NCBI GenBank assembly: GCA_944392205.1
Contig: CALXVV010000002.1
Location: forward strand, 20,949-84,948
Direction of reading: 5' to 3'
Length of the DNA: 64,000 nt
Source of the DNA: an uncultured Alphaproteobacteria bacterium
Lineage (GTDB): Bacteria > Pseudomonadota > Alphaproteobacteria > RF32 > CAG-239
Under the pieces are notes generated by a model that worked only from the letters and a program-made list of their open reading frames with translations, searched no databases and had not been told where the DNA came from. Of this stretch, positions 2,307 through 62,479 are shown piece by piece. The position numbers and the translations under genes are program-made. Position 1 is the stretch's first letter; each line of letters starts with the position of its first letter.

Positions 2307-2582
2307 ATGGCACAGTCTTACTCAAAAGATTTGGAAATTAAAAATAAAAAAGGACTGCATGCCCGCGCCGCTGCCGCTTTTGTTAAAACGGTTGAGCCTT
2401 TTGATGCAGAAGTTTCGGTTGAGCGTATCGGGCAAAATGTTAGCGGATCTTCTATCATGGGGCTGATGATGTTGGCAGCCTCTAAAGGCACTTTCATCAA
2501 AGTCACCTGCTCCGGTAACCAAGCTAAAGAGGCTATGGAGGCTATTGAAAAACTCCTTGATAATAAGTTTGGAGAAGAATAA
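2307..2582 (+). CDS. ptsH: Phosphocarrier protein HPr/NPr.
   Basis: MAQSYSKDLEIKNKKGLHARAAAAFV contains the HPr active-site GLHARPA-type motif (His15). About 91 aa. Confidence 0.85.
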   Translation: MAQSYSKDLEIKNKKGLHARAAAAFVKTVEPFDAEVSVERIGQNVSGSSIMGLMMLAASKGTFIKVTCSGNQAKEAMEAIEKLLDNKFGEE

Positions 2583-2583
2583 G

Positions 2584-3519
2584 GTGGCCGCAAAAAAAGC
2601 CAAAGCACCCAGAAACAAAACGATAGAGCTGTCCCGAATCGAGACGGCTTTATATGTTTCTCAGGCTTTGCTGCCTAAGCAGAAACTCTCCCTTGAAGAT
2701 GCTAAAGATCAAATCATATTTGGTGACTGTCTAAAGGCCATGGACCTGCTTCCTGATGCTTGCGTGGATTTGATGATTGTTGACCCGCCTTACAATCTCA
2801 CAAAAAATTTCGGCAAAAACATCTTCAAGCAAATGGATGCAACAGAATATATGAGCTGGCTTGATTCTTGGCTTAAAAAAACCGTGCGCATTCTCAAAGA
2901 TAACGCCTCTGTCTACATCTGCTCTGACTGGAAAACGTCTTTATTTATTCCCGAAGTAGTCGGAAAATATTTTATTTTACAAAACCGCATATCTTGGGAG
3001 CGCGAAAAAGGTCGCAGCGCCGCTAATAACTGGAAAAATTGTCTTGAGGATATTTGGTTTTTTACCAAAAGCAAAAAATATACTTTTAACCTCGATGCTG
3101 TTAAGATTTTGCGGCCGGTGCTGGCTCCCTACCGTGACAAAAAGGGAAACCCTAAAGATTGGAAAGAGCAAGAAGGCCTGCGCCAACGTTTGACCTCTCC
3201 TTCCAATATCTGGACCGATATCTCGGTGCCGTTTTGGTCAATGCCTGAAAACACCTGTCACCCAACCCAAAAACCGGAAAAACTTATTGCTAAACTTATT
3301 TTGGCCTCCAGCAACCAGGGCGATCTGGTGTTTGACCCTTTTGTCGGCTCCGGTACCACCGCTGTCACCGCCAAAAAATTAAACCGCCACTTTATCGGAA
3401 TTGAGCAAGAAAAGGAATATGTCGCACTCTCTCTCAAGCGCCTTGAAATTGCCGAATCCGCGCCGCAAATCCAGGGCTTTGAAAACGGCATTTTTAAACC
3501 TCGCAACAGTGAGTGCTGA
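2584..3519 (+). CDS. ccrM: N6-adenine DNA methyltransferase, CcrM family (GANTC-specific, cell-cycle regulated).
   Basis: Motif IV DPPYNL (MIVDPPYNL) and an IIFGDCLKAM N-terminal block match CcrM of Caulobacter and Brucella. A C-terminal TRD-like region is present. The start is uncertain: GTG 2584 is the first in-frame start after the ptsH stop. The track start at 2545 overlaps ptsH. Confidence 0.75.
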   Translation: MAAKKAKAPRNKTIELSRIETALYVSQALLPKQKLSLEDAKDQIIFGDCLKAMDLLPDACVDLMIVDPPYNLTKNFGKNIFKQMDATEYMSWLDSWLKKTVRILKDNASVYICSDWKTSLFIPEVVGKYFILQNRISWEREKGRSAANNWKNCLEDIWFFTKSKKYTFNLDAVKILRPVLAPYRDKKGNPKDWKEQEGLRQRLTSPSNIWTDISVPFWSMPENTCHPTQKPEKLIAKLILASSNQGDLVFDPFVGSGTTAVTAKKLNRHFIGIEQEKEYVALSLKRLEIAESAPQIQGFENGIFKPRNSEC

Positions 3520-5337: not shown

Positions 5338-5970
5338 TTATATCTTTAACTGATAACCACCTTCAACCGTTGTTATCAGTTGCGCCTCTGCGTTGTCATG
5401 CTCAACCTTTTGGCGCAGACGGTAAATGTGTGTTTCTATCGTGTGGGTGGTGACATCGGGTGCATAGCCCCAGACTTCTTGCAACAACTCGTTCTTGCTG
5501 ACTATGCGGTTACGGTTTTTGTAAAGATACTTCAAAATTGCGACTTCTTTCTCGGTTAATTTGACAACCTCACCGTTGCGCTGGTTGAAAATATCTTTTT
5601 TTATCGGGCGCACAATATAGCGATTAAACACAACATAGCCGTTTTCGCTGTTTTCAAAGATATTAATGCAGGAATGGAGCTCATCTAAAAATGCCGACAA
5701 GCTAAACGGCTTGATGATGATGTGGGTGGCCGGACAGTCTGCCCCTATCTCCTCTGCGTGTGAGGTTAGGAAAAACAGAGGCACTTTCAAATCATGCTCG
5801 GAGCAGTTTTTTAAGAGCTCTCCTTTTTCATCAACAACAATAATATCCGGCAGAAGGGAACTATCTTTTTCTATGATGTTATAATCTTTGGCATAGTGGC
5901 TGATTTGGTCTGACAAATCAGCGGCAAAAACATCATCTTCTGATAACAGCAAAATGTTTGGCATTAGCAA
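5338..5970 (-). CDS. OmpR-family response regulator (receiver domain plus winged-helix domain), orphan.
   Basis: C-terminal wHTH LTEKEVAILKYLYKNRNRIVSKNELLQEVWG...THTIETHIYRLRQKV. Receiver features: acidic SEDD, candidate phospho-Asp in IIVVDEKG, T in FFLTSH, K in IKPFS. No histidine kinase gene is nearby. Confidence 0.7.
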   Translation of the reverse strand: MLMPNILLLSEDDVFAADLSDQISHYAKDYNIIEKDSSLLPDIIVVDEKGELLKNCSEHDLKVPLFFLTSHAEEIGADCPATHIIIKPFSLSAFLDELHSCINIFENSENGYVVFNRYIVRPIKKDIFNQRNGEVVKLTEKEVAILKYLYKNRNRIVSKNELLQEVWGYAPDVTTHTIETHIYRLRQKVEHDNAEAQLITTVEGGYQLKI

Positions 5971-18964: not shown

Positions 18965-20257
18965 ATGGCAAAAAAATTATCTATCATCTTCTTTATTTGT
19001 TTTGGACTATTGTTGGCTGCAGGCTCTGATGCTTGGGCCAAAAAAGAAACAAAGACCTCTGAGAATGAAGATACTTATGAACTGCTGAACTTATTCGGCG
19101 AAGTTATGGAACGCGCCAAAGCGTCTTATGTGGAAGAAGTTGATGATAAAAAACTTATCGAATCCGCCATTAACGGAATGCTCGTTTCTTTAGACCCTCA
19201 CTCAAGCTATCTGGATGAAAAAAGTTTCAAATATATGAATGAGCAAACCAAAGGCAAATTCGGAGGCCTGGGAATCGAAGTTACCATGGAACAAGGTGTG
19301 GTTAAGGTCGTGTCCCCAATCGATGACACTCCGGCCTCAAGAGCCGGCCTGAAACCCGGCGATTATATCACCAACATTGATGGCGAAAACGTTGTCGGCA
19401 TGAGCCTTAATGACGCTGTTGACAAGATGCGCGGCAAACCCGGCTCAAAGGTTAAACTCACCATCCGTCGCGTTAATGAAAAACCTTTTGATGTTACTCT
19501 CAAACGTGAGGAAATTAAAATCCAATCTGTCAAAAGCGACCTCAAGGCTGATGATGTGGCTTATATCCGCGTAACGTCTTTCAGTGAAGATGTTGATAAG
19601 AACATTGAAAAGGCTCTCAAAAAACTTCAGAAGAAAGCTGACGGCAAATTGGCCGGAGTGGTTTTGGATGTTCGCAACAATCCCGGAGGTTTGCTGGAAC
19701 AGGCGGTGGCTGTTTCCGATTTATTCCTAAATCAGGGAGAAATTGTTTCTACCCGTTCACGCAATGCCGAAGACACTATCCGCTACTCTGCGCAAGACGG
19801 CGATATTATCAACGGACTGCCTATCGTTGTTCTGATTAATGACGGGTCTGCTTCTGCCTCTGAGATTGTGGCAGGAGCTTTGCAAGACCATAAACGTGCT
19901 GTGTTGCTAGGTGAAAAATCTTTTGGAAAAGGATCTGTGCAAACCGTTATTCCGCTCGGAAAATATGGAGCAATGAGGTTGACGACGGCTCGTTACTATA
20001 CCCCGTCCGGGCGCTCTATTCAGGCAAAAGGAATCGAGCCAGATGTTGAGGTTCATCCGGCAAAAGTAGAAGAAATTGAGAGTGCTTACAACTTTAGCGA
20101 AGCTGAGTATGGAAATGCTCTGAAAAATGAAAAGGCTGACAGCGAGGCAAAAGATAAAAAAGAAAAAGCGCAAAATGATGATTGGCGTGCCGATTATCAG
20201 TTGTCTCGAGCTGTCGATTTGGTTAAGGCTCTTGCTATCTATAAACCTGCCGAATAG
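18965..20257 (+). CDS. ctpA: Carboxy-terminal processing protease (S41).
   Basis: PDZ domain (GLGIEV, GLKPGDYI) and S41 catalytic region (VVLDVRNNPGG, GSASASEIV, FGKGSVQ). Confidence 0.9.
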   Translation: MAKKLSIIFFICFGLLLAAGSDAWAKKETKTSENEDTYELLNLFGEVMERAKASYVEEVDDKKLIESAINGMLVSLDPHSSYLDEKSFKYMNEQTKGKFGGLGIEVTMEQGVVKVVSPIDDTPASRAGLKPGDYITNIDGENVVGMSLNDAVDKMRGKPGSKVKLTIRRVNEKPFDVTLKREEIKIQSVKSDLKADDVAYIRVTSFSEDVDKNIEKALKKLQKKADGKLAGVVLDVRNNPGGLLEQAVAVSDLFLNQGEIVSTRSRNAEDTIRYSAQDGDIINGLPIVVLINDGSASASEIVAGALQDHKRAVLLGEKSFGKGSVQTVIPLGKYGAMRLTTARYYTPSGRSIQAKGIEPDVEVHPAKVEEIESAYNFSEAEYGNALKNEKADSEAKDKKEKAQNDDWRADYQLSRAVDLVKALAIYKPAE

Positions 20258-28591: not shown

Positions 28592-28667
<76 letters not shown>

Positions 28668-28707
28668 ATTTCAAAAGACCACTAAAAAAGTGGGCTTTGT
28701 TTCTAAT

Positions 28708-28783
28708 GGGGGTATAGCTCAGTTGGGAGAGCGAATGGTTCGCAATCATTAGGTCAGGAGTTCGATCCTCCTTACCTCCACCA
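28708..28783 (+). tRNA. tRNA-Ala (anticodon CGC).
   Basis: Acceptor gggggta/tacctcc with G3:U70, D arm gctc agttggga gagc, anticodon loop ttCGCaa, T arm ggagttcgatcctcc, and encoded CCA. Confidence 0.85.
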
Positions 28784-46012: not shown

Positions 46013-49000
46013 ATGGGGTATAGCATGAAGCCGCTTCACGTTCTATCCGGATTTTGTTTGGCCTTGCTTTTGGTTTGTGGTTGCACAGCAAAGGCAATGG
46101 CCGAAACTGTTTGCTCTGGTGGTAATTGTGATGGTTTGGTGATGGACGATGTCTATAATGTACCTTCTCAAGAAACTGTGAATAATGCCACCGTTGTGAA
46201 TAACGGAGAATTATCTCTAGAAGACAACAGTTCCGCTACAAATATAGTTGTTAGTGATGGTGGAAAAATCTCTGCAGGATACAAGGTAACAATTGATGGA
46301 CTTACTCTTGAAAATGGTTCTGTTTTTGACTTTGCTGGCTCTCGCGGCGAAAATTCTCCGGTTATTTCTAATGCCACCCAAAACGGAAATGAGGTCTCTA
46401 TCCAAGATGATCTTGCCAAAGGCTTTGTTGTAAACAACGGTAGCTCTTTAGATGTGAAAAAGGGTGAAAACATCACTGTTGAAGATGGTGGAAACTTAAA
46501 GCTTTATAACGCCAGCAATATTGTTGTTAATGGCGGAACTGTTGACTTAGAAATGGCTGATGGCGTTGTTGTTAATGCTATAGATCAGAATATTATTGAT
46601 TATTCTACCTTTGATACAAGCCTGAAAACTGATGATTTAAGACTACGAGTAAAGGACTATCTGGATCTTGAGCAAAAATATGCGGATGGAGAAATAACTA
46701 AAGAAGAATTCTCAACTGCCATGGAGCAATTTGCTGACATGGAAACTGCTCTTAATGATTCCACAAATGTACTGACTAACTTATTGTCATATGCCTCTTT
46801 TTCAGCTACAAGCGCAAATAATTTAACAATAAATGCAATACCGCTCGATAATACTATTCCTCTGAATATGCTTAGGGATTATTTTCAGGTTTCGGCAAAA
46901 TTTTATGATTCCTTGGTTACTGACAAAGGAGATTCCCCCGTTAATGCTGGAATGTTGGACTATTTTATTGGTCTTTATACCCTGGCCTCAGAAATGAAAG
47001 AACAAAATATTGCCGGACCTAATGTTATTGGAAATATAAAATTAACCAATAGCTCTCTTTCTGATTGGGGAATAATAAGTAACCTTGTAAGGATGGAAAA
47101 TGTTGATCTTAATGATGGCTCTTTTGTTGTTGGATTAACGCAGTTGAACGGTCCTTCTGGCCATGAGGTTTTGCTTGATAATGTCCGCTTTAATGAAGGA
47201 AGCACTTTCTTTCTTGATACTGCCTCTACGGTTATAAACTCTACACAAGAGGGTAAGGAGGTTTCTATTATTGACCATGTCGCTGATGGTTTTTCTGTAA
47301 ATAAAAATAGTATGCTGGTTGTCAGCAATGGTGATAAGGCAAAAAATATTACCGTTAATGATGGCGGTCTGATTATGGCTGCCTTTGACTATTATTATAC
47401 TGACGGAAATGCTGAACTAGATAACATTGTTTTGAACGAGGGTGCCCTTTTTGACCTGCATACCGATGTTACAATGACAAACTCTACTCAAGAAGGTAAA
47501 GAGGTCTCTATTAAAGATAAAGTTGCTGATGGACTGACCATCAATGACGGTAGTGTACTCACCGTAAAAAGTGATGGTACAGCGAAAAATACTTTGGTTG
47601 AAGATGGCGGAACCTTAATTGCTAAAAAGACAGCTCAGATAAACAACTTGGTCGCTCATGGCGGTGCTATTTTGAATATTGATGCCGAAGCTATCTTATC
47701 CGGCGATATAGTCATTGATAAACAAGCTGATACTTCTTTTTCAGACTATGACTTCTCAGCTCTGTTTGCCGCAATGAATAAGGATACAACCTCTTTGACT
47801 CTGACCGGTGGTGTTCATGATTCCTTTGCCGATAAATTAATCAACGAAGATGTTGATGAAAATAAATCTTTGACCCTTGCCCAGGGCGATTATGTTATTG
47901 CTAATACTGAAAAAGACGGAGCTACCAAGGTCACCGGTTGGGATGTTATCAATATCGAAGCAGACACTTCTGAGGATGCAAAAAAGACAACTGTTAAATT
48001 AGAATCTGATATTTCTTTGCAGGGGTCTAATAAAAACTTTGTTGTCGGTGAAAATGCCGTTTTGGACCTCTCCGGACATTCTCCTCTTGATGTGACTATT
48101 GACGGTAATGTTATCAACAAAGGATTGATGGATTTTACTGTTAATGACACCCAAGGAGAAGCTGATGATACCACCACTATTACCGGCAATTATACGGCTC
48201 AAAACGGAGCAACCATTGCACTTAATGTTGATCCGGATACTCTAACTGCCGATAAACTGGTTATTGATGGCGATGTTGTCGGAAACACCAATGTCTTCCT
48301 TAAAACATCTTCTGAAAACTCGGCAGATGGAGATATTCTCTTTGCTCAAGTTCCTAATGACAATCCTGATACGGAATCTTCTTTTGATATATGGCGTGTA
48401 GAGGGAAGTCCTTATAAATGGTCATCAAAGTTTGAGGATAACAACTGGTATACTTATGTTTCCGGCGTTGCCGCTGATGATGACGAAGAGCCCGGAGATA
48501 ACAAACCTGTTTTTGTTCCGGAGATGGTGGCTTATGCCGGCCTTTATGACGCCGGATTTGAACAAACCCGTTCTTTGGCCAGAGCTATTGCCTCAAACAG
48601 CGGTAAAAATGGTTTGCTTGGCTCTGGTTGCCGTGACGGATATTGTCGCAAAATTGAACCCTTGCATACGGCCTGGGCGGTTCCTGTTTATTCAAACGTA
48701 AAAGTTAAGGCTCCTTACGACTATGAAGCCGATATCAGTGGGCTTGATGCCGGATTTGATTTGGTTGCTGATGGAATAAACAAACTTGGAATCTTGGTTT
48801 CTTATCGAGATGGTTCTTATGATTTTAGCGGCAAAAGTGATGATTTTATGTCTTACGGCGGTGCCGATATTGATATTGATAGTTATCTATTGGGTATCTA
48901 TGCCAGACACGATAAAGGACACCTCAAGGCCTTGGCTGCTGCTTTTGCAGGTGTTCAGTCTGCTGACATTCAATCTGATGACGGTGTAAAGGCAGACACT

Positions 49001-49450
49001 GATGCTGTTGAAGCCGGTGTAACTCTTGATGTCGCTTATATCTATGAAGCCGTCAAGGGAGTTACTTTAGAACCAGAACTTCAAGCCTCTTATACAATGC
49101 TTAAATATGACGATATTAAGGATAATGCCGGAAAGAATGTTAAATTTGATACTGCACATCGAGTTGAAATTGACGCTGGTGTAAAGATCAAAAAGTCTTG
49201 GCAACTTGATGAAGCTAAAGCGGCTATTTATGTTAAGCCGAGCCTTGTTCAAACATTTAACAGCGGCGGAGACTTAGTCCTAGCCAATGATGCAACCAAC
49301 ACTCTTGATGATCAGACTTTAGGTAGGGTAGAAATTGGAGCTGATTTCCAGCTTGATACTCGGTGGTCTGTCGGAGCGTCTGCTTCCCATACCTTTAACT
49401 CTGATTATGAGGACACATCCTTTAATCTTGATTTGCAATATAGGTTTTAA
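46013..49450 (+). CDS. Autotransporter (type Va) adhesin-like protein with three internal repeats.
   Basis: Signal peptide (MKPLHVLSGFCLALLLVCGC). The passenger domain is rich in VxDGG/NxGG beta-helix-like repeats. Three copies of an about 50-aa unit are present (ATQNGNEVSIQD..., STQEGKEVSIID..., STQEGKEVSIKD...). A C-terminal beta-barrel of about 280 aa ends in ...LDLQYRF with a terminal aromatic residue. Confidence 0.8.
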   Translation: MGYSMKPLHVLSGFCLALLLVCGCTAKAMAETVCSGGNCDGLVMDDVYNVPSQETVNNATVVNNGELSLEDNSSATNIVVSDGGKISAGYKVTIDGLTLENGSVFDFAGSRGENSPVISNATQNGNEVSIQDDLAKGFVVNNGSSLDVKKGENITVEDGGNLKLYNASNIVVNGGTVDLEMADGVVVNAIDQNIIDYSTFDTSLKTDDLRLRVKDYLDLEQKYADGEITKEEFSTAMEQFADMETALNDSTNVLTNLLSYASFSATSANNLTINAIPLDNTIPLNMLRDYFQVSAKFYDSLVTDKGDSPVNAGMLDYFIGLYTLASEMKEQNIAGPNVIGNIKLTNSSLSDWGIISNLVRMENVDLNDGSFVVGLTQLNGPSGHEVLLDNVRFNEGSTFFLDTASTVINSTQEGKEVSIIDHVADGFSVNKNSMLVVSNGDKAKNITVNDGGLIMAAFDYYYTDGNAELDNIVLNEGALFDLHTDVTMTNSTQEGKEVSIKDKVADGLTINDGSVLTVKSDGTAKNTLVEDGGTLIAKKTAQINNLVAHGGAILNIDAEAILSGDIVIDKQADTSFSDYDFSALFAAMNKDTTSLTLTGGVHDSFADKLINEDVDENKSLTLAQGDYVIANTEKDGATKVTGWDVINIEADTSEDAKKTTVKLESDISLQGSNKNFVVGENAVLDLSGHSPLDVTIDGNVINKGLMDFTVNDTQGEADDTTTITGNYTAQNGATIALNVDPDTLTADKLVIDGDVVGNTNVFLKTSSENSADGDILFAQVPNDNPDTESSFDIWRVEGSPYKWSSKFEDNNWYTYVSGVAADDDEEPGDNKPVFVPEMVAYAGLYDAGFEQTRSLARAIASNSGKNGLLGSGCRDGYCRKIEPLHTAWAVPVYSNVKVKAPYDYEADISGLDAGFDLVADGINKLGILVSYRDGSYDFSGKSDDFMSYGGADIDIDSYLLGIYARHDKGHLKALAAAFAGVQSADIQSDDGVKADTDAVEAGVTLDVAYIYEAVKGVTLEPELQASYTMLKYDDIKDNAGKNVKFDTAHRVEIDAGVKIKKSWQLDEAKAAIYVKPSLVQTFNSGGDLVLANDATNTLDDQTLGRVEIGADFQLDTRWSVGASASHTFNSDYEDTSFNLDLQYRF
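46360..47640 (+). repeat. Internal degenerate repeats within the autotransporter passenger domain (3 copies of about 140-150 bp at roughly 46360, 47229 and 47472).
   Basis: Copies 2 and 3 are recognisably similar at the DNA level by eye (aactctacacaagagggtaaggaggtttctatt... versus aactctactcaagaaggtaaagaggtctctatt...). Copy 1 is more diverged. Confidence 0.6.
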
Positions 49451-49735: not shown

Positions 49736-50731
49736 TTAGTCTACAATTTTTATTGAAAATTTATCGTTTGATGCTACAGGCTCCTCAGCTTTAAATACAG
49801 TGTTCTGAGAAGTTTCTCCGCGGCGTTTTTGCTCCAATGTCTCTATAATCATATCTAACTCTGCTACCGATGAATACTGCAGAACTACTTTGCCGCCGCC
49901 TTGTTTGTTGGGGCTAATCTTAATTCTTAGGCCCAAGCTTTTTACAAGTTGTCTTTCTATGTCGGCAATATCAGAATTTCTTTCTGTTTTTTCTTTAGCC
50001 GGTTTAGGAGTTTTTTGGCGAGAAACCAAATCTTCTACCTGGCGAACATTTAGATCTTTGGCTATTATCTGCTTGGCTAAAGAACTCGCGTTTTCTAGCC
50101 CAACAAGAGCTCTGGCATGGCCGGCGGAGAGTTTGCCTTCTTTTACAAGCTCCTGAACATCTGCCGGTAAAAACAACAGGCGCAAAGTATTAGCTATATG
50201 GCTGCGAGATTTGCCTACAATCTGAGACAACGCCTCTTGGGTATGGGCAAACTCATTTATGAGCCGCTGGTAACCTTCTGCCTCTTCTATGGCTGATAAA
50301 TTCTCACGCAAGATGTTTTCAACCAGAGCAGCCTCTAAAACCTCTTGATCATTCAAATCTTTGATAACAACCGGAACCTCTTGTAACCCGGCTATTTTTG
50401 CCGCCCGCCAACGGCGTTCTCCGGCGATCAGTTCATATTTATCTCCTTGGTGGCGTACCAAAAGAGGTTGTAAAACGCCCTTTTCTTTGATTGAATCTGC
50501 CAAGGATTGCAGAGCTTCCTTATCAAACTCCGTGCGCGGCTGATATTTTCCGGGAATAATATCATCAACACTTATGCTGTCAGTTGGTTTTATTTCTGTG
50601 TTGATTTCATTTTCCAAATCATCCCCCAGCAGGGCGCCCAGCCCTCTTCCCAAACTTTTTCTTTTGTGAGAGGCCTGGTTGGTGTGAACAGAATCATCGT
50701 TCAACAGCTCATCTAAATCATTATCTAACAT
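49736..50731 (-). CDS. parB: Chromosome partitioning protein ParB.
   Basis: ParB box GERRWRAA, HTH QEALSQIVGKSRSHIANTLRLL, and an N-terminal Lys/Asp-rich region. The start is set to ATG 50731 (MLDNDLDELL), 5 bp after the parA stop. The track start at 50800 overlaps parA. Confidence 0.9.
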   Translation of the reverse strand: MLDNDLDELLNDDSVHTNQASHKRKSLGRGLGALLGDDLENEINTEIKPTDSISVDDIIPGKYQPRTEFDKEALQSLADSIKEKGVLQPLLVRHQGDKYELIAGERRWRAAKIAGLQEVPVVIKDLNDQEVLEAALVENILRENLSAIEEAEGYQRLINEFAHTQEALSQIVGKSRSHIANTLRLLFLPADVQELVKEGKLSAGHARALVGLENASSLAKQIIAKDLNVRQVEDLVSRQKTPKPAKEKTERNSDIADIERQLVKSLGLRIKISPNKQGGGKVVLQYSSVAELDMIIETLEQKRRGETSQNTVFKAEEPVASNDKFSIKIVD

Positions 50732-51504
50732 GCAATTAATTCCTTTTCTCTCTTCAATACTTCTCCGGTGAGGCTGATATAGGCCTGAGACCCCGGACAT
50801 TTGAAATCATACAACAATACCGGCTTGCCGTGTGAGGGGGCTTCAGAAATTCTGACATTCCGCGGAATAACCGTATTGTAAACCTTTTTACCAAAGAAAT
50901 GGCGGACATCATCTTCTACCATCTGGCTTAGATTGTTGCGTTTGTCATACATTGTCAGCACAACGCCATGCAAAGCCAAAGACGGGTTAAATTTCTTCTT
51001 TATTTGATTTATGTTGCGAATTAAGTCCGTCACGCCCTCTAATGCCAAAAACTCACATTGCAGTGGTACGATAACAGCATCAGCGGCAACGAGTGCATTA
51101 ATTGTTACCAAGCTCAATGAAGGGGGGCAATCTATCAAAATATAGTCGTAGTTAACCGCATCTCTTTTCAGAGCTTTTTTGAGAGCAAACTCTCTGTTTT
51201 CCATATCAACCAGCTCAACCTCCGCACCGGCCAAGTCAGGAGAAGAAGGAACCAGCGAGAAATTGGGAATCTCTGTCCAGACAACGGCATCCGTTAATCT
51301 TTTTTCGCCCAACAAGACTTCATAACTTGAGGCCATGCGCCCTTTTTTGTTTATTCCCATTGAAGTTGAAGCGTTGCCTTGAGGATCCAAATCTACCACC
51401 AAAACTTTTTTACCGGCAGCGGCCATGGCCGTGGCAACATTGACCGTTGTCGTGGTTTTTCCGACTCCTCCCTTGCGGTTGGCAACAGCTAAAATTCTCG
51501 GCAT
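50725..51504 (-). CDS. parA: Chromosome partitioning ATPase ParA (Soj).
   Basis: Deviant Walker A KGGVGKTTT. About 259 aa. Directly follows rsmG. Confidence 0.95.
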   Translation of the reverse strand: MPRILAVANRKGGVGKTTTTVNVATAMAAAGKKVLVVDLDPQGNASTSMGINKKGRMASSYEVLLGEKRLTDAVVWTEIPNFSLVPSSPDLAGAEVELVDMENREFALKKALKRDAVNYDYILIDCPPSLSLVTINALVAADAVIVPLQCEFLALEGVTDLIRNINQIKKKFNPSLALHGVVLTMYDKRNNLSQMVEDDVRHFFGKKVYNTVIPRNVRISEAPSHGKPVLLYDFKCPGSQAYISLTGEVLKREKELIAC

Positions 51505-52131
51505 CTACTTTTCTCCTTTAATTTTGCTTAACTTGGTTATAACTAAAATTCTTCCCTCTTGGCTTTGCTCACTGGGCAAAATTTGGCACTTAAATTTCCA
51601 GTGGCGGTGAGCTTCTGCCAATTCCTCGACATATTTTTTACCCTTTGGAAAAATACAAATTGTTTCTTCTTTACAAAAGCGAAGAGCATACCCCAACAAA
51701 TCATTCAATGAAGCCATAGCTCTTGAGGTAATGACATCAGCCTTTTGGGCGGGAATTTTTTCGATTCTGTCATTTATGATATTTACTTTTGTGTTGGTCT
51801 GCGCCTTAACCTCGTTTAAATACAGTGTTTTCTTTCCTGTGCTCTCAACTAAATTAACTTTTAAATCCGGCAATTTTTCATTGGCTATAATTGCCAGTAC
51901 CATTCCCGGAAACCCAGCTCCAGAGCCAAAATCATACAAAACTTTGGCACTTTCCGGTATCAAAGAAAACAACTGAACAGAGTCCAAAAAATGACGGTTC
52001 CAGGCATCTTCCAGCGTGGCTGAACTAACCAAATTAAATTTTTGCTGCCAAGACAAAAGAAGCTCTTGGTAGGTTTTTAACTTGTCAAATGTTTCACGTG
52101 AAACATTGTATTTTTCGCAGAAATTTTTCAT
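51505..52131 (-). CDS. rsmG: 16S rRNA m7G527 methyltransferase RsmG (GidB).
   Basis: SAM-binding region DFGSGAGFPGMVLAI. About 208 aa. Sits in the conserved position before parA. Confidence 0.9.
   Translation of the reverse strand: MKNFCEKYNVSRETFDKLKTYQELLLSWQQKFNLVSSATLEDAWNRHFLDSVQLFSLIPESAKVLYDFGSGAGFPGMVLAIIANEKLPDLKVNLVESTGKKTLYLNEVKAQTNTKVNIINDRIEKIPAQKADVITSRAMASLNDLLGYALRFCKEETICIFPKGKKYVEELAEAHRHWKFKCQILPSEQSQEGRILVITKLSKIKGEK
52090..52105. promoter_or_regulatory. parS centromere site (perfect 16-bp palindrome).
   Basis: tgtttcacgtgaaaca equals the universal parS consensus TGTTTCACGTGAAACA. It lies inside the 5' end of the rsmG coding sequence. Confidence 0.8.
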
Positions 52132-52258: not shown

Positions 52259-53065
52259 TCAAAATTTAAATCTCTTTTTACAGCCAAGTTCTGCAAGTTT
52301 GGATTCTGCCTCGGCAAAATATTGTCCTAAACAATCAGTATTGTGTGCATCGTCACTGATGAGGGTCGGAACCCCTGCCCTCACCAGCTCCTTTACAATC
52401 CACCAATCAGGGCTTGGAATTCCACAGCGTCTGATGCCGTTGGTGTTTATTTCAAATGGGGTTTTTGTTTGCTTAAAGGCCTCTATCACTTTCCACTTCC
52501 AATCATCCCACTCCGATTCTGTGCAGAGACCTAAATTTGATGCTAGGTCAAAATGAGCTATAAAAGCAAAATAGCCGCTATTTATGCAATCTATGATGTT
52601 TTGCCAATGGTTTCTAAGATATTCTTTCATGCTTTCGTCTTTTATCGGCTTTCCGCCTAGCCGCCAAATATTGTAAATATTTTGCTCATCTTTGCTAAAG
52701 GCGTTGTGATTAGATCCGATAACATAGTCCGGCTTTACCTCTTTTAACATCTTTTCAAAGGCATCTCTCCATATTTTTGATGGGAAAAAGTCAACCTCAA
52801 ACCCTGCATAAACTTTTATCTTGTGGCGACTGGCAGCTTCCCTTGTCTGCTCAATATCCTTTTTGGCATAGTCCAGAGCCTTTGTGAGGTTACTAAAAAA
52901 CATAGAATGTTCTTCAGAAATATTGGGATGGTAAACAAAATGGTTGCTAACACCAATCTCTGAAAAACCTATTTCCTCTGCTCTTGACAACATCTCATCA
53001 CAAGTGTTGTGCCCATCTGCTATTCCTTGGCTGGAATTATGTGAGTGATAGGTAAAATCTTGCAT
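52259..53065 (-). CDS. PHP-domain metal-dependent phosphoesterase (HisK-like histidinol-phosphatase family).
   Basis: PHP motifs YHSHNSSQGIADGH (HxH...DG), GFEVD, IGSNHN, IAHFDL and EINTNG. Its ATG overlaps the stop of the upstream HD gene by 1 nt. Confidence 0.7.
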   Translation of the reverse strand: MQDFTYHSHNSSQGIADGHNTCDEMLSRAEEIGFSEIGVSNHFVYHPNISEEHSMFFSNLTKALDYAKKDIEQTREAASRHKIKVYAGFEVDFFPSKIWRDAFEKMLKEVKPDYVIGSNHNAFSKDEQNIYNIWRLGGKPIKDESMKEYLRNHWQNIIDCINSGYFAFIAHFDLASNLGLCTESEWDDWKWKVIEAFKQTKTPFEINTNGIRRCGIPSPDWWIVKELVRAGVPTLISDDAHNTDCLGQYFAEAESKLAELGCKKRFKF

Positions 53066-53676
53066 TACTTTATCCCCAACAACTCATAAATATCTTGTCC
53101 GCAGAGCTTATCAAATCGCTTTTTTAACTTCTCTGCAGCTTTTTTCATGCCTTCCGACTCTTTTGGATCTCTATTATATTTTTTGATTATATAGTCAATC
53201 CGTTCTTCCAGTCTTACAAACTTTCTGTGACAGCAAAGCATGTCACTCAGCTGGATTAAATAATCGTAGTCATCCAACTCCATTTTTGATATAAGTTCTT
53301 TTGCTCGCTCTATTTCCTTTTTATCATAGACAAAGTGCTCCGGGGCAAATGTTCCTTTCCAAAAGCTGTGAGTTAAGCATACCCTAGCAATTTCATCATA
53401 ACCTAGCTTCATCATCTCATCATAGCCAGCTGTGCCGTGAAAGGTGCCGGGAACGGTTCTTTCTATATATTCACCATAGTCATGAAAAAGCCCTAAAATT
53501 TTGGCCTTATGACTATCTAAACCACAATGTGAGGCTATCTTTTCTGCACAGCGAGAAACATCTATATAGTGGTGAACAGATTCATCTGCTGCACACCCTC
53601 TTGCAATATTTGGCTCTTTTGTTTTTTCACAAACAAAATCAAAAAGATTTTTGACTGCTTTTTTATCCGGTAACAT
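53065..53676 (-). CDS. HD-domain phosphohydrolase, paralogue 2.
   Basis: HD motif GLFHDYGE and conserved blocks FHGTAGYDEMMKLGYDEIARVCLTHSF and DDYDYLIQLSDM, which are shared with the adjacent paralogue. Confidence 0.7.
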   Translation of the reverse strand: MLPDKKAVKNLFDFVCEKTKEPNIARGCAADESVHHYIDVSRCAEKIASHCGLDSHKAKILGLFHDYGEYIERTVPGTFHGTAGYDEMMKLGYDEIARVCLTHSFWKGTFAPEHFVYDKKEIERAKELISKMELDDYDYLIQLSDMLCCHRKFVRLEERIDYIIKKYNRDPKESEGMKKAAEKLKKRFDKLCGQDIYELLGIK

Positions 53677-53681
53677 CTATG

Positions 53682-53700
53682 GCCCCCTTTTTTAGGGGGC
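53682..53700 (-). promoter_or_regulatory. Intercistronic hairpin that sequesters the Shine-Dalgarno of HD paralogue 2.
   Basis: On the mRNA: gcccccuaaaaaagggggc, then cauag and AUG. A 6-bp GC stem. The purine-rich agggggc that would serve as the SD is one arm of the stem. No U-run follows, so it is not a terminator. Confidence 0.4.
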
Positions 53701-53711
53701 TATTCTAGCAT

Positions 53712-54326
53712 CTATATATTTAATATTTTGTAAACATCCATTCCGCAAAGAGCATCAAAATATGTTTTGTTTCTTTTTGTATATTTCTCTTGTTCTTTCG
53801 TTTGTTCTTTGTCCAAACCATAACGTTTTCTTATGCCGGCAAGGCGCTCTTCAAAACCGACTTTGGACATTCCCTCAAAAAACATATCGCATAGCTGTAT
53901 TAAGCGATCATAATCATCATATTCTTCTATTTCATCCAACTTTTGATGAGCCCAGTGCAACCATTCCGGCCGATATGAAGCATAATACTTGTCGTTAAAT
54001 TTTTTATTTGGAAAGCTATGAGTCAGACAGATACGCGCACATTCATCATAGCCCAACTTTAGCAATTCTTCATAGCCTGTTTGGGCGTGAAATTTGCCAG
54101 TCAATTTTTCATCGTATTTCTTGCCATAGTCATGTAATAAACCGACAATATATGCCTTTTCAGAGTTTAAATACGGTGTTTTTTCCGCTATTTTTTGAGC
54201 TGCCTCTGCCACACCGGTAGTGTGAAAAACATATTCCTTATAAATGGGCCAATCGTAAGGTTGTTTTAATCTAAAATCTATTCCCTCTTGCCATAGCTGT
54301 TTGGCTTTTTGCAGAGAAGGTATCAT
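53712..54326 (-). CDS. HD-domain phosphohydrolase, paralogue 1.
   Basis: Metal-ligand series H35 (VFHTTGV), H65-D66 (LLHDYGK), H80 (FHAQTGYEE), H103 (CLTHSF) and D147 (LIQLCDM). The ATG overlaps the mnmG stop (ATGA). Confidence 0.7.
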
Positions 54327-56173
54327 TTTTTTACATATCCCAAAATGGCTGTGATTGCTGCAGGTGTAACACCCGGAATTCTTGAGGCCTCTCCTATAGT
54401 TGACGGACGAACCTTAGAAAGCTTTGTCACCATTTCGCGCGACAAACCTCCTATCTTGCTATAATCTATATCTTCTTTTAAGCGCAGATTTTCATCTTTT
54501 TTGAAAACTTCTATATCTGCCATTTGACGTTTGATATAGCCAGAATACCGTGCCTCTATCTCCACCTGCTCGTAAATATCATCTGCAACATTCTCAAATT
54601 GTGGCCAGATGCTATTGATGGTTTCACGTGAAACATCGTGATAAGACATAACATTAAAAGCACTTCTTCTGACACCGTCTTGTTTGATGTTTATTCCTCT
54701 TTTTTCTAATTCAATAGGAAGAATATTTTCAGCCTCTGCTGCTTTTCTAAAGTCGTTTATTGCCTTCTTTTTGGCTTTAAATACACTGTATCTATATTCT
54801 CCGACACAGCCTATTTTATAGCCTTTCTCTGTCAAACGCTGGTCTGCGTTATCGGCTCTCAAAAACAATCTATATTCAGAACGAGATGTGAACATTCTAT
54901 ATGGTTCATCAACTCCCTTGGTGATCAAGTCATCAACCATCACACCCATATAGCCCTCTGCTCTGTCTACAGTGAAAATATCATCTCTTCCTAAAGCTGA
55001 TAAAGCGGCATTCACTCCAGCCAAAAGACCTTGTGCCGCGGCCTCCTCATAGCCCGTTGTTCCATTAATCTGACCAGCCAAAAATAGACCCGGAACCTTT
55101 TTTACAGCCAATCTGCTATCTAATTCTTGCGGATCTACATAGTCATATTCTATGGCATAGGCCGGGCGCAAAATCTCTACATTTTCCAACCCCGCCATAG
55201 TATGAATAAACTGATCTTGAACATCCGCCGGCAGTGATGTCGATATTCCGTTTGGGTAAACAACATCCGTATTTAACCCTTCTGGCTCCAAAAATATTTG
55301 GTGACTGGTGCGGTCTGCAAATTTGACCAGCTTATCTTCTATGCTAGGACAATATCTTGGCCCGATGCCAGTTATAAGCCCAGAAAACAGTGCACATTTC
55401 GAAAAATTATCTCTTATTATCTTGTGCGTTCTCTCATTTGTGTGCGTGATGTAGCATTTTATCTGCGGATTTTCCAACTTCTCAGTCAAAAAAGAAAAAG
55501 GTTGCGGATTTTTATCTCCTTCTTGGGATTCCAAAATATCCCAGTTAATTGTTTTACCATTCAACCTGGCGGGGGTGCCTGTCTTCAGGCGCCCTACTTT
55601 TAGCCCCATATCCTTTAAATACGGTGTTATACCTGTACAGCTGATGTCATTTACCCTGCCCCCAACATATGTTTGGTGGCCAATAAACATTATTCCGTTC
55701 AAAAAAGTACCTGAGGTCAATACTACCGCTTTGGCCCTCAGTTCTCTTCCGTCTGCAAGTTTTACACCGCAAACTTTTCCTTTCTCAACAATAAAACCTT
55801 CTGCTGAGGCTTCTACTAACTCTAAATTTTTTTGCTCCCTTAGCGCCTCTAGCATATATTTTTTATAAAGCTCTCTGTCTGCTTGAGCTCTTGGACCCCT
55901 TACTGCCGGACCTTTTGAGGCATTGAGCATTCTAAACTGTATGCCGGCTTTATCTATAACGCGCCCCATCAATCCATCTAGCGCATCAATCTCTCTTACC
56001 AAATGTCCTTTACCCAGACCCCCTATGGCCGGGTTGCAAGACATCTCGCCAATAGTTGAAATCTTGTGAGTTACCAAGGCTGTATCAGCTCCTATCCGGG
56101 CTGCTGCTGCGCAGGCCTCACATCCGGCATGGCCGCCGCCGACAACAATTACGTCATATTCTGTTTTAGTCAT
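54323..56173 (-). CDS. mnmG: tRNA uridine 5-carboxymethylaminomethyl modification enzyme MnmG (GidA).
   Basis: FAD-binding N-terminus [15 protein letters not shown] and the full-length conserved GidA body (about 616 aa), ending ...[10 protein letters not shown]. Confidence 0.95.
54619..54634. promoter_or_regulatory. parS-like site (15 of 16 match, with a perfect 14-bp core).
   Basis: ggtttcacgtgaaaca. The GTTTCACGTGAAAC core is intact. It lies inside the mnmG coding sequence. Confidence 0.65.
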
Positions 56174-59470: not shown

Positions 59471-60724
59471 TTAGGAATTCATATTGGCAAAGAAGTCATT
59501 ATTATCCTTACTTACTCTTAATTTATCAAGCAAGAACTCCATGCCGTCCGTCATGCCCATTTGCATCAAGACGCGGCGCAAAACCCACATCTTGGTTAAG
59601 CGTTCTTTATCCACCAAAAGTTCTTCTTTTCTGGTGCCGGAACGTGTGATATCTATGGTCGGGAATAAACGTTTATCAGTTAGTTTTCTATCAAGAATAA
59701 TTTCTGAGTTACCCGTTCCCTTAAACTCTTCAAAAATAACCTCATCCATGCGAGAACCGGTATCTATCAACGCCGTGGCAATGATAGTTAAGGACCCGCC
59801 TTCTTCAACATTTCTGGCAGCACCAAGCAGGCGTTTTGGTCTTTGCAGAGCATTGGCATCTACACCACCGGTTAAAACCTTTCCTGATGAAGGAATCACG
59901 GTATTATAGGCTCTGCCCAAACGAGTAATGGAATCCAGTAAAATAACAACATCTTTTTTGGTTTCTACCAAACGTTTGGCTTTTTCTATCACCATTTCTG
60001 CAACCTGAACATGGCGGCTTGCCGGCTCATCAAATGTCGATGATATAACCTCTCCTTTAACAGAGCGGGTCATATCCGTTACCTCTTCCGGGCGCTCATC
60101 TATCAGCAACACCATCAAATAGCATTCAGGATGATTGGTGGCTATGGCATGGGCAATGTTTTGCAACATTACGGTTTTACCGGTGCGAGGAGGAGCCACA
60201 ATCAAGCCTCTCTGTCCTTTTCCCTGCGGAGCAATCAAGTCAATGACTCTTGTGGTGTAATCTTTCTCTCCGCATATAATGTCAAAATTGAGTTTTTCCG
60301 TCGGGTACAAAGGTGTTAAGTTATCGAAATTTACTCTCAATTTTGATTTTTCGGGATCTTCAAAATTAATCTTATTTACTTTTACCAGAGCAAAGTAGCG
60401 CTCATTGTCTTTCGGCGCTCTTATCTCTCCTTCTACCGTGTCTCCAGTTCTTAGACCAAATTTCTTTACTTGGGCGGGAGATACATATATATCATCCGGG
60501 CCGGCCAGGTAATTTGATTGAGCCGAACGCAAAAAACCAAAGCCATCTTGCATGACCTCTATGGTTCCTTCGCCGCTGATGGTTTGATCTTCGCCTGCTA
60601 CTTTTTTCAAAATAGCAAACATTAAGTCTTGTACACGCATGGAAGAAGCGTCTTCTATGCCGAGATCCTCTGCCTGAGTTAACAACTCAGTCGGAGACTT
60701 TTGTTTTAAATCTTTTAAATTCAT
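59471..60724 (-). CDS. rho: Transcription termination factor Rho.
   Basis: [16 protein letters not shown]-terminus, the RNA-binding OB-fold, the ATPase Walker A GKT in [11 protein letters not shown], and Q/R loops. 417 aa. Confidence 0.95.
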
Positions 60725-60960
60725 GGAAACCTTTTTGGAAATGATTAAATAGGAGGGATATTTGTGATTTTTTTATAAGAGTTTTTTTACCTTCTGTCAA
60801 TTAATATTATAAGGCACTTTTATGAACAGCCCCGCAGGGCCAATAATATATTTTTAAAATGTTTTTGTTGTTTGTGAATCCCTGTGAGAGTTGTTGATTA
60901 TTTTTTTATCTTTGAGTTATTCAGATTTTAACTCTTTGTTAATAAAATTGAGGAAATTTG

Positions 60961-60975
60961 TTAATAGTTTATTAA
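60961..60975. promoter_or_regulatory. CtrA-box (TTAA-N7-TTAA).
   Basis: ttaatagtttattaa. Confidence 0.5.
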
Positions 60976-61041
60976 TATTTTAGTCTTTTCAATTGACTAA
61001 TGTTGTGAAGCTTATTTTTTGTTGGTTGTTAGTAAGTTTTG

Positions 61042-61050
61042 TTATCCACA
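61042..61050. promoter_or_regulatory. DnaA box (perfect 9-mer).
   Basis: ttatccaca. Confidence 0.6.
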
Positions 61051-61199
61051 TCTTGTGAATCAAATTTAAGCCTGTGTGTAAGTTGTGAGATTAAATTTTA
61101 CTTTACGGTGATAAAAAGTTATAAAAGGTAGGGTAGGGGTGAGTTATGCACAGAAAATGAGACTTCTGTTTATAACTTGTTTAACCTTCTGATAAAAGG

Positions 61200-61796
61200 A
61201 TGTTTTTTATGTTGCTTGTGGCTATTACCGGTTCTATCGGGTGCGGAAAGACTACTTTGGCTAAAATTGCCAATTCTTTGGGATATACCGTTTTTGATAT
61301 TGATGGTTGGGTGAGGAGACTCTACTTTTCTCGGGATTTTTTAAAAACACTGGAAAAATCTTTTCCCGGAACTGTTCATAATGGAGTGGCTGATAAAAGA
61401 GCTTTGCGCAACTTAGTCTTTAATGATAAAGGTAAACTCAAACTCTTAGAAAGTCTTATTCATCCTTTTTTGCGTGAAAATTTAAAAAAAGTCATTAGAG
61501 AAAACGCTTGTTATTCTGATATATTTTTTATTGACGTGGCTTTGTTGTTTGAAATGGGATGGGATAAATATTGCGATTTGATTTTGGTGGCAGATGTTGA
61601 TTATAATATCCAAAAACAACGTGTCATGAAAAGAGATAATATTTCTGCCGAGGATTTTGACAAGATAAATAATGTGCAAATGAGTAATGAACATAAAAAA
61701 ATGTTGGCTGATGTGGTGATTAATACCGATAAGCCTAAAAATTTGCTCAAGGTTGAGCTTATTAACATTATTAGAGGATTGGAAGCTAATTTATGA
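61200..61796 (+). CDS. coaE: Dephospho-CoA kinase.
   Basis: VAITGSIGCGKTT P-loop at the N-terminus. About 198 aa. Followed by dnaQ with a 4-bp overlap, as in other alphaproteobacteria. Confidence 0.85.
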   Translation: MFFMLLVAITGSIGCGKTTLAKIANSLGYTVFDIDGWVRRLYFSRDFLKTLEKSFPGTVHNGVADKRALRNLVFNDKGKLKLLESLIHPFLRENLKKVIRENACYSDIFFIDVALLFEMGWDKYCDLILVADVDYNIQKQRVMKRDNISAEDFDKINNVQMSNEHKKMLADVVINTDKPKNLLKVELINIIRGLEANL

Positions 61797-62479
61797 CAAG
61801 AGAAATTGTATTTGATACCGAAACAACAGGTTTTGACTATGCTAAGGGCGACAGATTGGTTGAAATTGGCGCTGTTGAGCTTATTAATCATATGCCGACC
61901 GGCGTGACTTTTCATCAATATATTAATCCGGAAAGAGATGTGCCTGAAGAGGTTGTTAAAGTTCACGGATTAACTTATGATTTTTTGAAAGATTTTCCTA
62001 CCTTTGAAAAAATTGCCGATGATTGGCTCGATTTTGTGGGTGATGCTACTTTGGTTGCTCATAATGCCTCTTTTGATATTAATTTTGTGAATTATGAGCT
62101 GAAACAAATAGGAAAGCCGGAATTTGAATGGAGCAGGGTGGTTGATACCTTGGAAATTGCCAGATTACTATTTCCAGGTGCCAGGTGCAGTTTGGATGCC
62201 TTGTGTAAGAGGTTTGAGGTTGATAACAGCAGTCGTACTTTTCACGGAGCATTACTTGATGCTCAGCTGCTGTCTGAGGTATATTTGGAGCTTTTGGGTG
62301 GAAAAGAACCAAGCTTGTTGCTTGATTCTAAAAAAACAAAAGTTGAAAAAAACGTGGAGACAACTCAACAACAAAAAACTTTGCGGCCGGCCAGAAATTT
62401 TTCTTTGAGTGAAGATGAAATAAATGCTCATAATGCTTTTTTGCAAAGTAAAATAAAAGAGGCCGTTTGGAACAGCTAA
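61793..62479 (+). CDS. dnaQ: DNA polymerase III epsilon subunit (3'-5' proofreading exonuclease).
   Basis: Exo I (VFDTETTG), Exo II (LVAHNASFD) and Exo III (HGALLDAQLLSEVY) motifs. Confidence 0.9.
   Translation: MTREIVFDTETTGFDYAKGDRLVEIGAVELINHMPTGVTFHQYINPERDVPEEVVKVHGLTYDFLKDFPTFEKIADDWLDFVGDATLVAHNASFDINFVNYELKQIGKPEFEWSRVVDTLEIARLLFPGARCSLDALCKRFEVDNSSRTFHGALLDAQLLSEVYLELLGGKEPSLLLDSKKTKVEKNVETTQQQKTLRPARNFSLSEDEINAHNAFLQSKIKEAVWNS

Follow-up and report, generated by a model that had tools for sequence, protein, structure and literature searches.

In Caulobacter, the spacer of a conserved gene block is the mapped chromosomal origin of replication (Cori), which contains seven DnaA boxes and five CtrA sites as well as an IHF site and internal promoters (PMC6393856, PMC1914354). 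Also, origins flanked by hemE and COG1806 (DUF299) have been predicted in Rickettsia and other Alphaproteobacteria (PMC6393856, PMC1914354). In this study, we analyzed a 64-kb stretch of DNA from an uncultured Alphaproteobacteria bacterium (contig CALXVV010000002.1, positions 20,949 to 84,948; hereafter the window), in which the divergently transcribed genes rho and coaE-dnaQ are separated by an AT-rich spacer of 484 bp. With a probability of roughly 0.8, we consider this spacer to be a functional Caulobacter-type chromosomal origin (oriC) of a reduced-genome gut alphaproteobacterium, with the promoters of rho and coaE-dnaQ lying inside it. A preliminary description of the window had proposed a candidate oriC at this place. 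Its motif content and conservation, the synteny of the locus and a local skew switch, all read directly from the sequences, now support this proposal, because the skew breakpoint maps to the spacer, motif positions are kept in nine genomes at saturated synonymous divergence, and synteny with 58 alphaproteobacterial loci makes the spacer a positional equivalent of the Caulobacter origin.

All coordinates given here are positions in the window. Contig L081 from a gut metagenome, with 99.98% identity to the window, adds 8.5 kb on the right and thereby extends the analyzed sequence to 72 kb. The spacer and its boundary genes are:

59471..60724, minus strand: rho, left boundary gene, transcribed away from the spacer (NCBIfam TIGR00767, 687 bits)
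60725..61208, no strand: candidate oriC, the whole rho-coaE intergenic region (motifs, alignment and breakpoint of the GC skew at third codon positions, GC3 skew)
61209..62479, plus strand: coaE-dnaQ, right boundary operon, transcribed away from the spacer (NCBIfam TIGR00152 and TIGR01406; gene calls of L081)

The GC content of the spacer is 28% versus about 42% for the window, so that its AT content is above average, as in the origin criterion of Brassinga and Ioannidis (PMC1914354). This agrees with the preliminary description, which had reported an AT-rich region of 475 bp between divergent rho and coaE-dnaQ; this length runs up to an earlier coaE start at 61200. The start of coaE is probably at 61209, because this start is called on the identical contig L081 and has the better ribosome binding site spacing. 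The start at 61200, which gives a CoaE of 198 aa, was rejected after a look-up of that protein returned nothing.

Strand composition was analyzed as GC3 skew per gene in plus-strand terms over the 72 kb (window plus L081), with 61 kb on the left side of the spacer and 11.5 kb on its right. Left of the spacer, the GC3 skew was -0.11 for plus-strand genes and -0.03 for minus-strand genes, and right of it +0.18 and +0.28, respectively. Because both orientations change across the spacer, the shift does not depend on the orientation of the genes. When all inter-gene breakpoints were scanned by weighted regression, with gene strand as covariate, the best one was at 60962 for GC3 skew as well as for GC skew at all sites, and none out of 500 permutations was as good. 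The raw cumulative skew is lowest at 58-61 kb of the window. In polarity, the change from minus to plus corresponds to an origin rather than a terminus, and the strand-composition switch known from bacterial origins is present locally at 60962. Loci of about 20 kb from relatives show the same left/right contrast, with the spacer as best or second-best breakpoint in four of them (L084, L086, L088 and L082). A walk along the right flank via a hypothetical protein of L084 led by homologue search to the same 14.7-kb contig, adding about 1.3 kb.

For the comparative footprint, nine genomes were used: the window, seven lineages with CoaE identities of 72-98%, and the metagenome-assembled genome L001 (CoaE 54%), which is the nearest genome in the species-representative collection (Rho 91% identical, all others at most 79%). 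Public metagenomes hold more than 1000 CoaE relatives, and many of those seen here come from gut-metagenome samples. All compared relatives have divergent rho and coaE genes with a spacer of 475-489 bp between them. The spacer is 55-74% identical, versus 34-45% at the four-fold-degenerate sites of rho, which are saturated; in the closest pair, synonymous sites are 89% and the spacer 99% identical, and the few differences fall outside the boxes. Judged by these comparisons, the spacer is under strong purifying selection. Columns fixed across the nine genomes (CoaE 54-98%) are those of TTAT..ACA DnaA boxes and of TTAA half-sites, with variation in the seven nucleotides between half-sites (N7) and in the flanks.

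At nine positions, the spacer matches the DnaA box TTATCCACA with at most two mismatches, and a tenth, weaker DnaA-like box lies at 60873:

60820..60828, plus strand: DnaA-like box TTATGAACA, read as TTATTCACA or TTATGCACA in relatives (box scan, box table)
60873..60881, minus strand: weak DnaA-like box TGTGAATCC (reverse complement GGATTCACA, three mismatches), embedding GAATC (motif scan, alignment)
60892..60900, minus strand: DnaA-like box TAATCAACA, in relatives TAATCCACA, CTATCCACA, TTATCAACA or TTTTCCACA (box table)
60917..60925, plus strand: DnaA-like box TTATTCAGA, in relatives TTATCCAGA or TTATCCAAA (box table)
60937..60945, minus strand: DnaA-like box TTATTAACA, overlapping CtrA-type site 1 (box table)
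61042..61050, plus strand: perfect DnaA box TTATCCACA, the position keeping TTATNNACA in eight of nine genomes (motif scan, box table)
61054..61062, minus strand: inverted partner box TGTGAATCA (reverse complement TGATTCACA), embedding GAATC, partly conserved (motif scan, box table)
61073..61081, minus strand: DnaA-like box (reverse complement TTACACACA) within the best-conserved block of the spacer (alignment, box table)
61144..61152, plus strand: DnaA box TTATGCACA with one mismatch, TTAT-CACA being invariant in all nine genomes (motif scan, alignment)
61167..61175, minus strand: DnaA-like box (reverse complement TTATAAACA), with perfect TTATCCACA at this position in L085 (box table)

The perfect box that had been reported for the spacer was found at 61042-61050 and is the sole one in the 64 kb. 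Also present are the two reported near-boxes of the type TGTGAATC(C/A), each with an embedded GAATC, at 60873 (TGTGAATCC) and 61054 (TGTGAATCA). The motif TTATNNACA occurs five times in the spacer versus 0.20 times expected, a number reached in none of 5000 dinucleotide-preserving shuffles of the spacer itself. Strict matches to TTATNCACA are found twice, at 61042 and 61144; the 13 further intergenic regions in the 72 kb that measure 250 bp or more have none. With these two strict and about ten positionally conserved TTATNNACA-like boxes, the spacer is an intergenic region with multiple DnaA boxes as defined via TTATNCACA in PMC1914354. Among all 14 intergenic regions checked, no other one has the same combination of sites (the criterion of PMC1914354 refers to regions above 300 bp). 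At most of the nine better boxes, the pattern TTAT..ACA is kept in nearly all nine genomes while the middle bases vary, and at the weak box 60873 the core xxATxxACA is kept in relatives. A search for direct and inverted repeats in the spacer gave nothing besides the box pairs. Another cluster of DnaA boxes was considered and rejected: three TTATNNACA at 46150-46203 (minus strand) lie in the 5′ end of an autotransporter-like open reading frame (ORF) of 1145 aa (46013-49450), where the GC3 skew does not change, and are probably due to chance or derived from repeats.

Two sites of the CtrA type TTAA-N7-TTAA are located in the center of the spacer:

60928..60942, plus strand: CtrA-type site 1, TTAACTCTTTGTTAA, perfect in six of nine genomes, N7 varying (motif scan, alignment)
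60961..60975, plus strand: CtrA-type site 2, TTAATAGTTTATTAA, perfect in eight of nine genomes, with invariant half-sites and free N7 (motif scan, alignment)

Two perfect copies compare with 0.16 expected (P=0.013; 5000 dinucleotide shuffles), and the whole window contains five. One perfect site and one half-match had been noted before; the perfect site at 60961-60975 was recovered, and the supposed half-match has to be revised, as the second copy at 60928-60942 is also perfect. The spacer thus carries the CtrA motif TTAA-N7-TTAA named in PMC1914354, in the form of two conserved perfect sites. In the loci of seven relatives (12.7-21 kb each), 13 of the 17 TTAA-N7-TTAA fall in the spacer, which makes up about 2-4% of each locus. 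Half-sites that are kept together with a free N7 form, at the level of the alignment, the signature of a protein target with spaced half-sites, and the motif suggests CtrA as the protein that would bind here. A 210-aa winged-helix regulator of the OmpR family (Trans_reg_C) is encoded at 5338-5970 on the minus strand of the window. It was rejected as a candidate for CtrA, with just weak generic response-regulator matches, an N-terminal half that misses the Pfam receiver-domain model, and no CtrA model among its top 25 NCBIfam matches. By domain composition, the protein is possibly a response regulator of atypical or degenerate type.

The preliminary description had also included GANTC sites and a ccrM gene in the window as elements of the origin, which did not hold. 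The two GANTC in 475 bp correspond to the window average; they are not enriched and not positionally conserved in relatives, and the one in box 60873 is kept in only five of nine genomes. Across the window, GANTC is depleted (147 observed versus 205 expected). The presumed ccrM, ORF 2545-3519 on the plus strand, scores 124.7 bits versus a CcrM cut-off of 830 (NCBIfam NF050803). It encodes a beta-class N6/N4 adenine methyltransferase with a DPPY motif (Pfam), has other beta-class methyltransferases and not CcrM as best PDB matches, aligns to the CcrM structure 6PBD over residues 237-300 only, and does not qualify as a CcrM equivalog. The combination of GANTC sites in the origin with ccrM (PMC1914354) is not found in the window, and the CcrM/GANTC element of the earlier interpretation should be dropped. 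In Caulobacter, CcrM methylation is reported to be dispensable for Cori function (PMC6393856). The IHF consensus WATCAN5WTR has one match in the window. It lies directly before the coaE ribosome binding site, on the minus strand, and this position is matched in just four of nine genomes.

Besides the DnaA and CtrA-type motifs, the spacer contains two promoter-like elements, a short palindrome and an AT-rich tract:

60772..60800, minus strand: rho promoter of the sigma-70 type with -35 TTGACA (reverse complement of 60795-60800), 17-nt spacer and -10 TATAAA (reverse complement of 60772-60777) (sequence, alignment)
60829..60841, no strand: small GC-rich palindrome of 13 bp, GCCCCGCAGGGCC (alignment)
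60842..60872, no strand: most AT-rich, sequence-conserved tract, 85-87% AT (alignment, AT profile)
61097..61125, plus strand: rightward promoter-like element TTTACT, 17-nt spacer, TATAAA, with invariant TTTAC and AT-AAA/TA positions (sequence, alignment)

Both hexamers of the rho promoter are invariant in the nine genomes, and the implied leader is about 40 nt long. An automatic promoter scan missed this promoter, since its rule demands T at position 6 of the -10 hexamer. The element at 61097-61125 presumably drives coaE-dnaQ, and the boxes at 61144 and 61167 would therefore sit in the leader. A further promoter-like match at 60920-60948 overlaps CtrA-type site 1. On the basis of its composition and conservation, the tract 60842-60872 is proposed as a putative DNA-unwinding element. 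It follows box 60820 and the 13-bp GCCCCGCAGGGCC, which is near-identical in eight of nine genomes (one with a single change in the loop). In L001, another 13-bp sequence, higher in GC than the DNA around it, takes this place, thereby keeping the layout of box, 13 bp and AT tract. GCCCCGCAGGGCC may bind a factor, mark the boundary of unwinding or form a tiny hairpin. A small ORF at 60822 (MNSPAGPIIYF) was rejected, because its ATG is missing in L088 and its third codon positions are conserved to the same degree as the first two.

For synteny, 58 alphaproteobacterial loci with rho and coaE were compared. Their common order is dnaQ-coaE-(aroE)-maf-(DUF299), then the divergent spacer, then (hemE)-(hemH)-hemJ-rho-mnmE-mnmG-rsmG-parA-parB. 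In all but one of the 58 loci, the GC content of the spacer is below that of its own locus, and often two to five DnaA boxes with at most one mismatch are present. The boundary genes vary by lineage, with DUF299 and hemE in many loci, maf and hemJ in Rhodobacterales-like ones, and DUF299 and rho in Bartonella. Only in the present lineage everything between coaE and rho is lost, i.e., aroE, maf, DUF299, hemE, hemH and hemJ. The absence of hemE and the direct contact of rho with the spacer, both reported before, were confirmed: neither hemE nor COG1806/DUF299, the neighbors named in PMC1914354, was found in the window and its 8.5-kb extension. Because it is the only divergent spacer left in the otherwise conserved block from coaE to rho, the rho-coaE spacer is, by gene order, the positional equivalent of the Caulobacter origin spacer. 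When 8255-11254 of L001 are compared with 59471-62479 of the window, rho, spacer and coaE-dnaQ are inverted as one block, also relative to the canonical alphaproteobacterial order. According to this gene order, the rearrangement is a small inversion spanning the putative origin. Despite the inversion, every gene in L001 is co-directional with forks leaving the spacer.

The partition genes and two parS sites lie 6-10 kb from the spacer:

49736..51504, minus strand: partition genes parB-parA in the origin-proximal conserved block (gene order, NCBIfam)
52090..52105, no strand: perfect parS TGTTTCACGTGAAACA inside rsmG, 8.6 kb from the spacer (motif scan)
54620..54635, no strand: parS inside mnmG, one mismatch, 6.1 kb away from the spacer (motif scan)

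Two parS sites within 7-9 kb had been claimed; both sites exist, one perfect and one with a single mismatch, while the distances are 8.6 and 6.1 kb.

From these sequence features we infer protein binding, an unwinding site and a replication function as follows. The origin in the spacer would descend from the hemE/DUF299-type origin known in Caulobacter. DnaA would occupy about ten dispersed boxes, one of them perfect, several with one mismatch and the rest weak, and would open the AT-rich tract at about 60842-60872, beside box 60820 and the 13-bp GC-rich spacer. Forks would then move outward, co-directional with rho-mnmE-mnmG-rsmG-parAB on the left and coaE-dnaQ on the right. A CtrA-type response regulator would most likely bind the two central TTAA-N7-TTAA sites, one of which overlaps a DnaA-like box; its binding would compete with DnaA and thereby restrict initiation as in Caulobacter. 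The two conserved outward promoters, for rho and presumably for coaE-dnaQ, would be part of the same element. A bolder extension, which we regard as tentative and rather doubtful, is a self-contained origin of about 480 bp that doubles as a DnaA- and CtrA-responsive bidirectional promoter, so that the initiation state would directly set how strongly the termination factor Rho and the proofreading subunit DnaQ are expressed. In this extension, the lineage-specific GCCCCGCAGGGCC beside the unwinding tract would be the site of a further factor or an unwinding boundary, and a CcnA-like small RNA (sRNA) might be transcribed from CtrA-type site 1.

Several points weigh against an origin in the spacer. 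The skew switch is local and not chromosome-wide, with a right flank of 11.5 kb, and the best breakpoint lies elsewhere in the loci of L085, L089 and L001 (17-25 genes, low power). In L001, conservation does not extend to the perfect DnaA box itself, a scan with the consensus in the nine genomes gave no conserved IHF site in the spacer, and no clear array of DnaA-trios is visible there, as only a lenient (.A.)x3 pattern fits in one reading frame. Transcriptional control is an equally conceivable role for those DnaA boxes that lie near the two promoters. Within the 72 kb, dnaA, ctrA and ihf were not seen, and with no dnaA in this range the spacer does not lie next to dnaA or dnaN, a further origin criterion. 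Adjacency to dnaA or dnaN is not required of origins in Alphaproteobacteria.

Some of these points would fit a spacer that is a mere bidirectional promoter or regulatory region, in which DnaA and the protein binding TTAA-N7-TTAA act as transcription factors and the origin is located elsewhere, e.g., next to dnaA. Two conserved promoters of the sigma-70 type, with boxes just upstream of the rho -35 hexamer and in the presumed coaE leader, and the lack of a nearby dnaA speak for it. We consider it unlikely, since about ten conserved boxes over 350 bp go far beyond the usual need of promoter control, plus-strand and minus-strand genes alike change the sign of their GC3 skew at the spacer, parS and parAB lie next to it, and the position is homologous to that of the mapped Caulobacter origin, which itself contains promoters (PMC6393856). 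Less probable still is a relic of an ancestral origin or a rearrangement boundary, where the skew switch would stem from a recent inversion or from an acquired right segment with genes of a type IV secretion system (T4SS) and a pilin. Possible accessory genes do occur on the right flank (T4SS coupling protein, pilin), of which 11.5 kb are seen, and the small inversion of the rho-spacer-coaE-dnaQ block exists in L001. A relic would not be expected to be under strong purifying selection as this spacer is; moreover, the core genes coaE, dnaQ, maf and RNase G on the right side also have positive GC3 skew, and the gene order on this side is kept across relatives with 72-98% CoaE identity.

That the conserved sequence is instead a structured RNA, such as a long rho leader or attenuator, a riboswitch or an sRNA, appears very improbable. 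Such an RNA would account for the high conservation of the spacer, and it has a precedent in the Caulobacter sRNA CcnA, which is transcribed from within the origin (PMC8959179), as well as a possible start in the promoter-like match over CtrA-type site 1. The Rfam search of the spacer, however, gave no family with an E value below 0.1, and folding of the spacer alignment (509 columns) with RNAalifold gave -16 kcal/mol and an unfavourable covariation term, with predicted pairs that are simply the inverted DnaA boxes. The rho promoter implies a leader of only about 40 nt, and a short sRNA embedded in the origin would add to the origin and not replace it. All three explanations are less likely than an origin in the spacer.

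Further features were observed in the window and its extension. A PHP-domain protein and two tandem HD-domain paralogues are encoded between rsmG and mnmG (52259-54326, minus strand) and kept in gut relatives; in most other alphaproteobacterial loci examined, rsmG and mnmG are adjacent. The gene maf is present 5 kb right of the spacer beside RNase G, and the absence of hemE, hemH and hemJ from the block seen here hints at a loss of heme biosynthesis. Right of the window, 7071-13466 of L081 encode a pilin (PilS domain), FliX, DksA, Maf-RNase G-YacG and a VirD4/TraG-like T4SS coupling protein, in an order conserved in relatives. FliX is a flagellar regulator of Caulobacter. By analogy, its presence near the spacer weakly hints at a Caulobacter-type flagellar hierarchy. 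At 19670-19974 (minus strand), an Rfam match to Rickettsia sRNA47 (65 bits, just above threshold) lies antisense in a 430-aa ORF (18965-20257); conservation of the coding sequence, and not an sRNA, may be behind this match. A tandem pair of tRNA-Ala genes (anticodons GGC and CGC), separated by 40 bp, is located at 28592-28783 (plus strand).

The results provide a precise and testable origin coordinate for a widespread lineage of uncultured gut alphaproteobacteria, which can be useful for anchoring assemblies and for growth-rate estimates from metagenomic peak-to-trough coverage. They indicate that a Caulobacter-type origin can lose all classical flanking markers (hemE, DUF299) and yet keep its place and motif grammar; origin finders keyed to hemE or dnaA would therefore miss such an origin. 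Judging from the conserved TTAA-N7-TTAA sites, this gut commensal with its reduced genome appears to have kept a CtrA-style control of replication. Current understanding is not overturned thereby, and the finding will not surprise a specialist.

Compared with Cori of Caulobacter crescentus, the rho-coaE spacer takes the same place in the dnaQ-coaE...rho-mnmE-mnmG-rsmG-parAB block. Both are AT-rich divergent spacers of about 0.5 kb with promoters inside and with parS and parAB within 10 kb, and in both, TTAA-N7-TTAA sites, including one that overlaps a DnaA-like box, are interspersed among many mostly imperfect DnaA boxes. Unlike in Cori, rho and coaE abut the spacer, with hemE, DUF299, aroE, maf, hemH and hemJ absent from the block in the window. 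Furthermore, it has two CtrA-type sites in contrast to five, and one perfect DnaA box of the E. coli type, whereas Cori contains only G-boxes of moderate affinity and weak W-boxes; no conserved GANTC or IHF site was found in the spacer, and no CcrM equivalog in the window. A basal unwinding system consists of a DnaA box, a spacer of 10-13 bp and at least three DnaA-trios (PMC8287927). The succession of box 60820, 13-bp GC-rich spacer and AT tract resembles this system, orientation aside and as a resemblance only, but differs from it in having no convincing run of trinucleotide trios.

Similar in position and composition is Bartonella, represented by B. florencae (L036), which likewise has a low-GC genome and a block without hemE, hemH and hemJ, with rho as the immediate right neighbor of an AT-rich spacer. 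This spacer of 576 bp has a GC content of 22%, three DnaA boxes with at most one mismatch and one TTAA-N7-TTAA. In contrast to the window, DUF299, maf and aroE are still present on the opposite side of the Bartonella spacer, and the likeness is one of position and composition, with no sequence similarity of the spacers established. In the Rhodobacterales-type arrangement with maf and hemJ as boundary genes (L056, L073, L076), a low-GC spacer with three to five boxes of at most one mismatch also stays in the block; different from the window are the boundary genes and the TTAA-N7-TTAA sites, which are mostly absent. It follows from this arrangement that the boundary genes change between orders while the spacer bearing the DnaA boxes stays in the block.

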